A stretch of DNA of 64,000 nucleotides from Nitrososphaerota archaeon (GCA_041641305.1 JBEPYN010000001.1:704001-768000); one strand, 5' to 3'. Counted from the first letter of the stretch, positions 27,242-53,170 are shown. Made by a program: numbers and translations. Notes: a model not told the origin generated them from the letters alone.

Positions 27242-28261
27242 GTGTGTCATGGGTTGAGGATAGCGGTCGTGGGATTGGGTGTAGCGGGAAGCTATCTTCT
27301 GAGGCGTCTCTCGCTGGAGCATGAGGTTGTAGGCTTTGACAGGCAGAGGAGGGAAAACTTCAAAGCAATATGTGCGTGGGGGACATCGAGAAACCAGATA
27401 AAGAAGATTCTCCAGAAAGTGGAGATTGATTTTGATGAGTATCTTCTCCACCTCGGCGATAACCTCGTCCTCGACAACGGTAAGGAATCCTCATCTATTC
27501 CTCTTCTGGGCCTGTGCACATTTGATAAGAGGCGTCTGGAGCTCGACATGACAAAGGGCTACAAAGTCTTTTACGGAACCACTCCAACCCTCGAGGACCT
27601 GCGCAGAGACTTCGACCTAATCATCGACGCAACAGGTGTTTCGAGAACCCTTCTACCGCCAGCCCCCCGCGACAAAATTGTTCCATGCTTCCAGTACAGG
27701 GTCAAATACCATGGGAAAATGCCGTTTGAAGATTTTTACGTCAGAATATTCAGCTCCTGGGACGGTTATCTATGGTATTTTCCGCTCGGCGACAGCGAAG
27801 CCTATGTGGGCGCAGGACACATGGGAGGAAACCATGTAGCGGAGGTGAACACGTTCATAAATCGGTATGGCGGCAGCCCTGTCGAAAAAATGGGGAAATC
27901 TGTGCGGATTGCGCCGCCTGAGCTCATGACGCCTTTTTTCGACGGAAAAGTTGTTGGCGTGGGCGAGTCGATTGGAACGGTTTTTCCCCTGCTGGGCGAA
28001 GGTATACTGCCCAGCCTCGAGTGCGCGGAGATTCTCGCCGAGACGCTTGAAAACCGGGAAGCTTATCGGAGAAAGGTTCTCGAAACATTCAAACCATTCT
28101 CAGACATGTACAGGCTCATACAGCTTCGTCAAAATAACCAGCTGAGCCTCACGAGACATTTCCCTCTTGTGCTACGCTGCTACAGGTACATGAAGGAGCG
28201 GGAGGAGCGGTTTGGCTTGGTTATCCGCAGGAGTGATTTGATGCTCATAATCAACGCTTGA
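27242..28261 (+). CDS. FAD-dependent oxidoreductase, geranylgeranyl reductase-like
   Basis: VVGLGVAG, IIDATG, GYLWYFP, VGESIG..PLLGEGI. Confidence 0.78.
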   Translation: MCHGLRIAVVGLGVAGSYLLRRLSLEHEVVGFDRQRRENFKAICAWGTSRNQIKKILQKVEIDFDEYLLHLGDNLVLDNGKESSSIPLLGLCTFDKRRLELDMTKGYKVFYGTTPTLEDLRRDFDLIIDATGVSRTLLPPAPRDKIVPCFQYRVKYHGKMPFEDFYVRIFSSWDGYLWYFPLGDSEAYVGAGHMGGNHVAEVNTFINRYGGSPVEKMGKSVRIAPPELMTPFFDGKVVGVGESIGTVFPLLGEGILPSLECAEILAETLENREAYRRKVLETFKPFSDMYRLIQLRQNNQLSLTRHFPLVLRCYRYMKEREERFGLVIRRSDLMLIINA

Positions 28262-28309
28262 ATAAGGTTTTTAAATTGGGAGAAAGCTTCTCCGACAAGG
28301 TGGTCGGAG

Positions 28310-29536
28310 CTAAAGCTCGTATGTAGGAACTGTGGTTCAGAATATTCCAACGAGCTGAGAAATGTATGTGACAAGTGTCTCGGGGCCCTTGACGTCGTCT
28401 ACGAAGAGGTAGCGGATGGTCTGCGCAGCAGAATAGCCAACAGTTTTGTCCGCGGTGTCTGGCGATATGCTGAGCTTTTGCCCGTGAAGAAGGAGTACCG
28501 CGTCGACATCGGGGCAGGAGGCACAGCCTTGGTTCATGCACGTGAGCTGGGCCGTGTGATAGGTGTCCGCAACCTCTACATCAAAAACGACACGACAAAC
28601 CCCTCCTTCTCCTTCAAAGATAGGCCGGCGTCGGTGGCTGTCTCGAAGGCGCGGGAGTTTGGTCTCAGGATTGTTGGATGCGCGTCCACGGGCAACCTCG
28701 CCTCGGCCACGGTAGCCCACGCGGCTGCAGCCGGCTTGACGGGGTTCGTCCTCATGCCCGACACAGTCGAGCTCCCGAAGGTGCGTCAGGCCTCGATATA
28801 CGGCGCAAAAGTAATCCTCGTCGACGGCACCTACGACGACGTCAACCGCCTCGCATACCTCCTCGTCGACACAGCTGAAGTCGGAATAGTCAACGTCAAC
28901 CTAAGGCCCTTCTACGTGGAGGGCTCCAAAACCATGATGTATGAAACCGTTGAAGCCCTTGGCTGGCGCGCCCCACAGCACATCGTGGTCCCCATGGCGA
29001 GCGGCGCCCTCTTCGGAGCACTCTACAAAGGACTGCACGAGTTCGAGACGTTTGGAGCCATATCGCATGCCGACACAGTTTTCCACGGGGTACAGCCCAT
29101 AGGATGCTCACCGATATCAACAGCGTTTGAAACAGGTGCGGAGGAGGTTACACCTGTGAAGAAACCTGAGACCCTTGTGAAGAGTCTCGCCATCGGCAAC
29201 CCAGGCGACGGACTATACGCCCTAAACGTCGCCCGTAAAACAGGAGGCAGCTGTCAAAAGGTCTCCGATGACGCCACCGTTGAAGCGGTGAAGCTTCTTG
29301 CAAAGTATACGGGGATTTTCGCCGAACCCGGCGGAGCCATCACCGTCGCTGCGGTCAAGCAGATGAGGGAGAACGGGGTGATCGATGCGGGTGACGAGGT
29401 TGTATGCTGCGTAACTGGCGCGGGCTTCAAGGTTGACGAGGTTGTTGAGCAGGTGAGCGGCCCCGCCTACGTCGTCCCAGCACGCCTCGACAAAATCCTC
29501 GAAACCCTCCAAACCAACCAGCCCCTATCCCATTAA
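28310..29536 (+). CDS. thrC: Threonine synthase (PLP, N-terminal zinc ribbon); no canonical start, probable CTA start
   Basis: Frame open from 28262: (L)KLVCRNCG...CDKCLG...GVWRYAELLP, then NPSFSFKDR, ASTGN; no ATG/GTG/TTG in frame before 28478. Confidence 0.88.
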   Translation, partial: LKLVCRNCGSEYSNELRNVCDKCLGALDVVYEEVADGLRSRIANSFVRGVWRYAELLPVKKEYRVDIGAGGTALVHARELGRVIGVRNLYIKNDTTNPSFSFKDRPASVAVSKAREFGLRIVGCASTGNLASATVAHAAAAGLTGFVLMPDTVELPKVRQASIYGAKVILVDGTYDDVNRLAYLLVDTAEVGIVNVNLRPFYVEGSKTMMYETVEALGWRAPQHIVVPMASGALFGALYKGLHEFETFGAISHADTVFHGVQPIGCSPISTAFETGAEEVTPVKKPETLVKSLAIGNPGDGLYALNVARKTGGSCQKVSDDATVEAVKLLAKYTGIFAEPGGAITVAAVKQMRENGVIDAGDEVVCCVTGAGFKVDEVVEQVSGPAYVVPARLDKILETLQTNQPLSH

Positions 29537-51441: not shown

Positions 51442-51496
51442 GTTGTGGAAAACTTTTTACCCCGGCTGAATCCGTTGTCTCAACGGGTGAGCTAAG

Positions 51497-53170
51497 CTAC
51501 AGAAGTGGGTTGTCTGCGGGGCCTGGCCCTATATCAACACAGTTCCACACCTCGGCACACTCATAGGCTCCGAGCTTTCAGCCGACGTTTTCGCACGCTA
51601 CCTCAGGGCCAAGGGCTACAGAGTTGTCTTTGTCAGCGGCTCTGACGAGCATGGCACACCCATCGAGGTTGAGGCGGCCAAGAGAGGAGTAGACCCACGC
51701 GAAATAACCGACAAAAACCACGCCATCGTCGTCGACCTCTTCAACAAGTTCCACATCTCCTTCGACAACTACACCCGGACACACAACCCAACACACATAA
51801 CCTTCTGCCAAAAATTCTTCAGGAAAATATACGAAAACGGATACATCTACGAGGAGGATGTCAGCCAGCTCTACTGCAGAAACTGTGGAAGGTTTCTGCC
51901 CGACAGGTTTGTTACAGGTGTTTGCCCTTCATGCGGCTACCAACGTGCACGCGGCGACCAGTGCGAGTCATGCGGAAAAGTCCTCGACCCACTTGACCTA
52001 CTCGAGCCACGGTGCAGCATCTGCGGCGAAAAACCCGTCGTAGAATCGAGCAGGCACTGGTTCTTCGACTTGCCCCGGTTTAGCGAAAGGTTGAGAGAAT
52101 GGCTGAACACAAACACTTTTTTGTCTGAGAAGGTGCGGAACTTCAGCCTCAGCTGGATAAGGGAGGGCCTTAAGCCAAGGGCCGTTACACGTGACAACCT
52201 CTGGGGCATTCCCGCACCTTTCCCAGGCGCGGGCAACAAAACCATCTACGTATGGTTTGAGGCGGTGCTAGGCTACGTGAGCGCAACGGTTGAATGGGCG
52301 GAGAAGAGGGGGGAGCCCGAGCTCTGGAGAGAGTTCTGGCTAAGCCCAGACACGAGGTCAGCCTATTTCATCGGCAAAGACAACATACCCTTCCACACAG
52401 TCATCCTCCCCGCCCTCCTCCTCGCAACACATGAGCCATACATCCTCCCACACATAGTCTCGGCCACAGAATACCTCACTTTCGAGGGCAAAAAATTCTC
52501 CAAAAGCCTCGGCGTAGGAATATGGCTCGACCAAGCCATCGCCATGCTCGAAGCCGACATCTGGCGATACTACCTCATCAAGATAAGGCCCGAAACAGGT
52601 GACACAAACTTCAGCTACGATGGGCTGCAGGCGGTTGTCAACTCCGACCTCAACAACGACCTCGGCAACTTCGTCCACCGCGTCCTCACATTCATAAACA
52701 ACAACTTCGACGGAAAAATCCCCGAAGCAACAGATTTGACAGAAGAAGACAAGGCGATGCTGACGGCGATAGAGAAGACATTCAACGAGGTGGATAGCCT
52801 TCTCTCTGAAGCGAGGGAGAAACAGGCCCTCGAAACAGTCATCCAACTCGCCCGCGAAGGAAACGTCTACTTCAACAGGCGGGAGCCATGGCGGCTCGTC
52901 AAGACGAGGAAAGAAGAGGCCGCAACGGTTCTTCACGTGGCTGCACAAGTTTTGAAAGCTCTCGCCCTGCTCCTGTCACCTTTCACACCCGCCACCACGC
53001 ACAGGATACTCGAGCTAATAGGCCAGCGCGAAACAGCTCTAACATGGCTTGGTGAAAAACCATGGCACCTCCCAGCGGGCACACCCATAGCCAAGCCTGT
53101 CCCCCTATTCGAGAAACTCAGCGAAGAGAAGCTCAACGCAATACGTGCAGGCGCTTCATCCGCTCACTGA
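51497..53170 (+). CDS. metG: Methionyl-tRNA synthetase (557 aa); no canonical start, probable CTA start
   Basis: Frame open from 51491: (L)QKWVVCGAWPYINTVPHLGT...SGSDEHG, Zn knuckles, KFSKS; ORF track starts only at internal TTG 52070. Confidence 0.93.
   Translation, partial: LQKWVVCGAWPYINTVPHLGTLIGSELSADVFARYLRAKGYRVVFVSGSDEHGTPIEVEAAKRGVDPREITDKNHAIVVDLFNKFHISFDNYTRTHNPTHITFCQKFFRKIYENGYIYEEDVSQLYCRNCGRFLPDRFVTGVCPSCGYQRARGDQCESCGKVLDPLDLLEPRCSICGEKPVVESSRHWFFDLPRFSERLREWLNTNTFLSEKVRNFSLSWIREGLKPRAVTRDNLWGIPAPFPGAGNKTIYVWFEAVLGYVSATVEWAEKRGEPELWREFWLSPDTRSAYFIGKDNIPFHTVILPALLLATHEPYILPHIVSATEYLTFEGKKFSKSLGVGIWLDQAIAMLEADIWRYYLIKIRPETGDTNFSYDGLQAVVNSDLNNDLGNFVHRVLTFINNNFDGKIPEATDLTEEDKAMLTAIEKTFNEVDSLLSEAREKQALETVIQLAREGNVYFNRREPWRLVKTRKEEAATVLHVAAQVLKALALLLSPFTPATTHRILELIGQRETALTWLGEKPWHLPAGTPIAKPVPLFEKLSEEKLNAIRAGASSAH

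Follow-up and report, generated by a model that had tools for sequence, protein, structure and literature searches.

The window analysed here is a stretch of 64,000 nucleotides from a hot-spring Nitrososphaerota archaeon (G000:C1:704001-768000; the genome has 1.66 Mb in 4 contigs and a G+C content of 52%). It contains thrC, encoding a zinc-ribbon threonine synthase, and metS, encoding methionyl-tRNA synthetase. In both genes the conserved N terminus is preceded not by ATG, GTG or TTG but by a CTA codon located 7 nt downstream of a GGTG motif (GGTG-N7-CTA). Judged by sequence comparison, thrC is best read as an intact, functional gene with its translation start at a non-canonical codon. The features concerned are the following.

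27242-28261, + strand: upstream gene, with its stop codon TGA at 28259-28261; directly behind it, at 28262, the open thrC frame begins.
28268-28277, + strand: TATA box TTTTTAAATT of the thrC promoter, including TTTTAAA at 28269-28275.
28298-28305, + strand: Shine–Dalgarno (SD) sequence AGGTGGTC, the predicted ribosome-binding site, complementary to the 16S rRNA.
28300-28326, + strand: out-of-frame GTG open reading frame (ORF), GTG GTC GGA GCT AAA GCT CGT ATG TAG, of 8 codons plus stop.
28310-28312, + strand: CTA, the proposed thrC start codon, 7 nt after GGTG.
28310-29536, + strand: coding sequence of thrC, zinc-ribbon threonine synthase, 408 codons plus stop.
28322-28378, + strand: N-terminal zinc ribbon CRNC-x11-CDKC (residues 5-23), of the archaeal type and in frame.
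28478-28480, + strand: TTG at codon 57, the earliest canonical codon in the thrC frame, rejected as the thrC start.
51486-51499, + strand: metS start site, GGTG-N7-CTA; the frame opens at 51491 and CTA stands at 51497.

From 28262 through the zinc ribbon, the thrC frame contains no ATG, GTG or TTG, the first being TTG 28478. The start context reads AGGTG GTCGGAG CTA AAG CTC GTA TGT AGG AAC TGT, which encodes KLVCRNCG...CDKC, and 23 nt separate TTTTAAA from the GGTG at 28299. The thrC frame is +1 relative to the ORF of GTG 28300, and the 8-codon length of this ORF is not conserved among thrC orthologues. The identity of the protein is clear from its score against TIGR00260 (271.6 bits, above the equivalog cut-off of 167.1) and from its match to PF00291 (PALP; PLP fold type II) at 8e-63. 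A first-pass annotation of this DNA had already described the open frame, the absence of a canonical codon ahead of the zinc ribbon, the GGTG-N7-CTA arrangement and the out-of-frame 8-codon ORF ending in ATG TAG, and all these sequence statements were confirmed. The same applies to its claim of a second gene with this geometry 23 kb away, as the CTA of metS at 51497 is found at a distance of 23,187 nt.

In metS, only two codons separate the opening of the frame from CTA, and no canonical codon is reached until TTG 52070, 191 codons further on. Among 25 metS orthologues, the codon at the start position is CTA in 19, CTC in five and GTG in one, and in-frame stops are present one or two codons ahead of it. 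The single GTG, in L039, is located precisely where the other orthologues have CTA or CTC. This GTG, together with the near-cognate codons of other genes described below, shows that real start codons stand at this position. When the genus was searched for AGGTGGTC-N4-CTA, 23 matches were obtained, compared to 3 with the control. Of the 23, 17 coincide with the start of thrC or metS, and six fall inside genes and have no ORF. Moreover, the thrC and metS leaders are identical over 15–16 nt in several genomes of the genus, with the sequence AGGTGGTCGGAGCTA(A/G)G (metS loci L027, L026, and L030 compared to thrC loci L012 and L013). The metS leader of G000 itself, GGGTGAGCTAAGCTA, differs from this shared leader. 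Among the canonical N7 genes of G000, 87 in number, not one has a GGTG followed by GTC or ATC. The exact 15-mer was additionally considered as a regulon motif, and was rejected as it has only one occurrence in G000.

What lifts the observation above chance is that relatives conserve the arrangement, not the geometry itself. In the window, bare GGTG-N7-CTA is observed four times versus an expected 4.8, which is chance level. Conservation was assessed in thrC orthologues from 47 genomes, among which each of the four families of the class is represented. At the thrC start position, 43 of the 47 have CTA, three have CTC and one has CTG, and in 27 no in-frame ATG, GTG or TTG is present from the TATA box to this CTN codon. 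The spacing between GGTG and CTN is N7 in 31 orthologues and N6 in 10. The remaining six have a GGAGG-type or G-rich ribosome-binding site, and in four of these CTA stands 9 nt after GGAGG, which corresponds to the register of GGTG-N7. The TATA box is GGTTTATAAAAAGC-like and in most orthologues located 31–34 nt ahead of the CTN codon. An in-frame TGA immediately precedes CTA in L060, and in L048 a stop is found one codon ahead of CTA. The idea that thrC is translationally coupled, via ATA 28262, to the gene ahead of it was discarded, since orthologues have in-frame stops 2–8 codons before CTA.

In a codon-level alignment of 20 thrC orthologues, the start-position CTA is identical in 20/20. None of the 93 invariant columns of four- or sixfold degenerate amino acids has a single codon, and the 15 invariant leucine columns each show 3–6 codons, the commonest accounting for at most 11 of the 20. 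As internal leucine codons vary while the CTA at the start is fixed, CTA is conserved as nucleotides and not as leucine; this comparison indicates that the codon is under nucleotide-level selection. The codon following CTA varies among orthologues (AAG, AGG, AAA, AGT, GCC, GGG, GTC, and TCC). Further downstream, codons 2–56 evolve as coding sequence. In 12 orthologues of the genus, 27 of these codons encode the same amino acid with varying codons, 26 vary in amino acid and two are invariant, and the differences from G000 are mostly in the third position (e.g., 36 vs. 9 and 4). This purifying selection in the thrC frame, with synonymous change at codons 2–56, argues that the zinc ribbon is translated. 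In contrast, the position of the first canonical in-frame codon is not conserved and shifts between +9 and +426 nt.

Outside the class, the picture is mixed. In family f5, all 12 genomes examined have a canonical ATG, GTG or TTG, positioned 4–9 codons before the first cysteine, and outgroup families have an in-frame ATG GAG GGx ... CTC at thrC. In three genomes from two other families (G182, G166, and G138), thrC is again without a canonical start and has CTC or CTA behind an SD. At the thrC locus L117 of G182, which belongs to another family of the phylum, the sequence is ATG GGG TGA TGT GAA CTC; an in-frame TGA is thus present two codons after an in-frame ATG, followed by GGTG-N7-CTC.

The 3′ end of the 16S rRNA of G000 is ...GGAUCACCUCC (...GGATCACCTCC), with which AGGTGGTC pairs at eight positions, including one G-U. 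Ahead of long ORFs in this genome, the spacing from GGTG to ATG, GTG or TTG is N7 in 83 genes, N6 in 46, N8 in 40, and N5 in 31. As N7 is the mode for canonical starts, CTA 28310 is located at the optimal spacing. The geometry of the promoter predicts a thrC transcript with its 5′ end at about 28296–28300, probably level with AAGGTGG or slightly upstream of it. About 3% of the raw reads of one metatranscriptome (X19) were covered, and 0 reads were obtained from them. Single examples are known in which a canonical gene has a promoter-proximal GGTG followed by a start at N7 or N8.

On balance, we lean toward a start of thrC translation at CUA 28310, directed by a ribosome-binding site on a very short leader. 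The conserved TATA box at 28268–28277 would drive a transcript with its 5′ end at or just before AAGGUGGUC. The resulting leader of ~12 nt would essentially be an SD, AGGUGGUC, which would pair with the 3′ end of the 16S rRNA. This pairing would set the codon 7 nt after GGUG, i.e., at the preferred spacing in the genome, in the P site, and that codon is CUA rather than AUG, GUG or UUG. By analogy with E. coli, the first residue would by default be methionine, with the initiator tRNA on a non-cognate codon. Both the start of the ribosome at CUA and the presence of the SD inside the mRNA are what we infer from the genomic arrangement.

Several observations weigh against a start at CUA. Firstly, CUA agrees with AUG only in its middle base, and with mismatches at two of three positions (1 and 3) it would pair poorly with the initiator anticodon. 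The better near-cognates CTG and ATA are a single substitution away from CTA, yet they are almost never seen at the thrC start. The retention of CUA over CUG or AUA points to a selected property, such as the setting of a low expression level or a control shared with metS. Secondly, an exceptionally strong SD that offsets the weak codon was considered, and this holds only partly: the SD duplex of thrC, at -12.7 kcal/mol, is in the top 14%, whereas that of metS is at the median. Thirdly, SD-less genes of this genome mostly have their start codon 20–26 nt after the TATA 8-mer. The distance from the end of the TATA box is 22 nt to GTG 28300 and 32 nt to CTA, so it is GTG that fits the distance of an SD-less start. 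Because the promoter geometry puts GTG 28300 at leaderless start distance, the SD may be located at, or partly beyond, the 5′ end of the transcript. As a class, canonical genes with a promoter-proximal SD show weak enrichment over background. Across the genome as a whole, CTA at GGTG-N7 with a long open frame behind it is found in five of 182 cases, which is background level. Lastly, in the 10 N6 orthologues GTG is in frame, and an ordinary leaderless GTG start would suffice. Given these N6 orthologues and the outgroups with an in-frame ATG, the N7 forms of thrC seem to descend from an ordinary leaderless gene whose old start was thrown out of frame by a single additional base. GTG 28300 itself does not qualify as a leaderless start of thrC, as it stands +1 out of frame, both in G000 and in 31 of the 47 orthologues.

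The main rival explanation starts from this same GTG; it is a serious one, although we consider it unlikely. It holds that translation begins leaderless at GUG 28300 and that the ribosome makes a programmed +1 frameshift no later than the third or fourth codon, with AGGUGGUC acting as a stimulator as in prfB and xCU-A as the shift site. In bacterial prfB (encoding RF2), the programmed +1 frameshift involves an SD-like stimulator and the sequence CUU UGA C. The thrC start resembles this system in having an SD-like element a few nucleotides upstream, a +1-frame product and a CU-containing junction codon; a canonical 0-frame codon, GTG 28300, is present in G000 and most orthologues. The position of GTG 28300, at the modal distance from the TATA box for SD-less starts, agrees with a frameshift, as do the in-frame GTG of the N6 orthologues (genus g8, L020, L057, and L072), the in-frame ATG of the outgroups, and the single G in a G run that is the sole difference between L019 and L020. 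Moreover, the fourth codon in the GTG frame is always xCT, followed by A. However, unlike prfB, thrC and metS have no conserved site for re-pairing: a common slippery site is lacking, and GGA-G, AGC-T, and GTT-T are unable to re-pair. In addition, codon 3 of the GTG frame is a stop in thrC of L006 and in the metS genes of G000 and G009. In-frame stops confine the shift to one or two codons in f4-type metS and in L060, and the sequences of these codons differ. Finally, the 0-frame start is absent altogether in some thrC orthologues: L059, L061, L062, and L073 of g14 keep the SD and CTA or CTC, and the stretch in between is free of ATG, GTG and TTG in all three frames.

A start at another in-frame non-canonical codon close to CTA (AAG 28313 or AGG 28298), or one set by a fixed distance from the SD regardless of the codon, is improbable; under either reading, CTA would owe its conservation to something else. 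AAG and AGG are near-cognates with a single mismatch, and one of them follows CTA in most orthologues of the genus. In the preprint of Hecht et al. (10.1101/063800), low-level initiation behind a strong SD is described for almost any codon in E. coli. Nevertheless, AGG 28298 is located inside the SD, the codon after CTA varies, a stop stands immediately ahead of CTA in L060, and conservation at the nucleotide level is restricted to CTA (or CTC).

A further scenario retains CUA as the start and changes the tRNA that reads it, and we regard it as doubtful. The elongator Leu-tRNA(UAG), placed by the ribosome-binding site, would read CUA at initiation, so that ThrC and MetRS would be made without Met-tRNAi; the arrangement would have been kept for uncoupling both enzymes from the supply of charged initiator. 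If true, the methionine-charging enzyme and the enzyme at the threonine/methionine branch point would be independent of charged initiator tRNA, and both the preference for CUA and CUC over CUG and AUA and the atypical shared 15-nt leader would be accounted for. The tRNA-Leu(UAG) of G000 is an ordinary leucine tRNA with an intron in the D-arm. In the initiator tRNA, the A1:U72 pair is present as usual, and the anticodon stem contains three G:C pairs. A special tRNA as the cause was rejected, both tRNAs being ordinary.

It is very unlikely that RNA processing supplies the start, be it through a tRNA-type (bulge-helix-bulge, BHB) intron, through editing, or through a change of frame by slippage during transcription. 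No stable or shared fold of the BHB type, nor any other conserved structure, was found at the thrC start across orthologues. The minimum free energy is -15.5 compared to a shuffle mean of -17.4 (z +0.6), and the folds predicted around the start differ in every orthologue. Besides, there is no homopolymer at GGTGGTCGGAG, and the leader measures merely ~12 nt. It is hardly credible that the zinc ribbon remains untranslated and ThrC starts at TTG 28478, an outcome that had been named in advance as refuting the CTA start; although TTG is the first canonical in-frame codon and the TIGR00260 core begins near residue 50, the coding-type evolution of codons 2–56 and the unconserved position of the first canonical codon refute it, as the upstream codons are by this comparison clearly translated. 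Finally, the other outcome named in advance, an assembly or sequencing error that inserted one base between GTG 28300 and CTA, is refuted: removal of one base would give the ordinary start GTG TCG GAG CTA and some relatives are indeed N6, but this form is not the rule among relatives, contigs from runs X2, X5, and X6 (three studies) span 28183–28467 without an indel and without a differing letter at 28262–28340, 31 of the 47 independently assembled thrC orthologues are N7, and metS has the same arrangement. The earlier argument that two independent errors are hard to accept is thereby borne out, the arrangement being kept in 47 thrC and 25 metS orthologues.

In addition to thrC and metS, G000 was screened by coding potential for genes without a canonical start. 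This identified a TFB gene (ATA), malate synthase (CTG), the gene at C1:561272 (ATT) and others, all having a near-cognate codon at GGTG-N7. The TFB paralogue (C2:490827, + strand) has a zinc ribbon without a canonical start, and its GGTG-N7-ATA is positioned two codons past an in-frame TGA. In the gene for malate synthase (C1:667678, - strand, outside the window), ~90 conserved codons are free of ATG, GTG and TTG, and GGTG-N7-CTG is located directly 3′ of an in-frame TGA. At C1:561272 (+ strand), a signal-peptide-like N terminus, KKSLVTCLLLIAALLTL, follows GGTG-N7-ATT, with the next canonical codon 17 codons on. An adenylosuccinate-lyase-like gene (C2:60537, - strand; ...ITPIDGRYREKL) has 65 codons without a canonical start and an in-frame ATA just ahead of its conserved N terminus. 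A third CTA candidate, the moeB/thiF-like gene at C1:672288 with GGTG-N6-CTA, was rejected, as in-frame TTG and GTG codons are present just upstream.

Two interpretations offered in the first-pass annotation can be judged against these data. The proposed relaxation of start-codon selection in this lineage is upheld in part. ATA, ATT, and CTG at GGTG-N7 in other genes speak for it, whereas CTA is not in general use and was found only at thrC and metS. The initiator tRNA and aIF1, two of the components suggested for a check on fidelity-lowering changes, look ordinary; aIF1 is present and aligns end to end with solved archaeal aIF1. The alternative proposal, a shared control on aspartate-family genes, found no support, since metS is not an aspartate-family biosynthetic gene and no test here shows regulation. 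The sole hint that thrC and metS share anything is the nearly identical leader of 15–16 nt in several genomes of the genus.

Selected non-canonical starts are known from other prokaryotes, such as the AUU codons of infC and pcnB in E. coli, and genetic code table 11 includes ATA, ATT, and CTG as starts. Similar to thrC, infC-type starts have an SD at normal spacing, followed by a codon other than AUG, GUG or UUG. In both cases the unusual codon is kept among relatives, suggesting a role in setting or regulating the expression level. In contrast to the AUU type, the CUA of thrC has two mismatches instead of one and falls outside table 11, and an autoregulatory factor is known for none of the genes considered here. 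A second comparison is with E. coli reporters covering all 64 codons. According to Hecht et al., codons beyond the seven known starts, when combined with a strong SD and optimal spacing, initiate at roughly 0.1–1% of AUG, and the N-terminal residue was methionine even for CAU and GGA, and for a codon without any base in common with AUG (10.1101/063800). The Results of that preprint contain no value specific to CUA. By analogy, such non-cognate initiation offers a plausible default mechanism for a CUA start. SD-placed initiation at non-cognate codons would be common to both systems, with methionine as the first residue in E. coli; the E. coli case is an engineered reporter and reaches 0.1–1% of AUG, whereas thrC, for a core enzyme, and metS, for an essential synthetase, would depend on it entirely, class-wide in archaea.

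The start of thrC probably represents a mode of initiation that has not yet been described. The literature searched yielded no report of a natural CUA start and no work on the start codons of Caldiarchaeum, and a CUA start does not figure in a review of archaeal recoding. If the proposed reading is true, CUA, which mismatches AUG at two positions, serves as a natural start codon and has been selected across an archaeal class, which goes beyond the known set of starts and bears on start-codon checking by archaeal ribosomes, aIF1, and aIF2. There are practical consequences as well. Gene callers that are limited to ATG, GTG, and TTG truncate both proteins, with ThrC losing its zinc ribbon and MetRS losing ~190 residues, including the HIGH motif. 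Such truncation touches the databases and metabolic reconstructions of these uncultured archaea.

Some minor observations concern the assembly and the RNA genes. Short contigs at 28183–28212 and 29486–29520, with a depth of 34–188x compared to 8–13x, overlap the ends of the contigs carrying thrC (X2 and X5); these may be assembly-graph junctions or strain-variable points. Insertions in the D-arm are present in four tRNA-Leu genes, at C2:41545, C2:313694, C2:241420, and C1:691972 (anticodons CAA, UAG, GAG, and UAA), and one further tRNA gene, at 651–750 of the window, has a D-arm insertion too. These tRNAs were missed by ARAGORN and were recovered only with the Rfam tRNA model. Lastly, the 16S rRNA match at C2:678829-681974 covers 3146 nt, compared to 1478 positions in the model, and the 16S rRNA gene therefore probably carries large introns.

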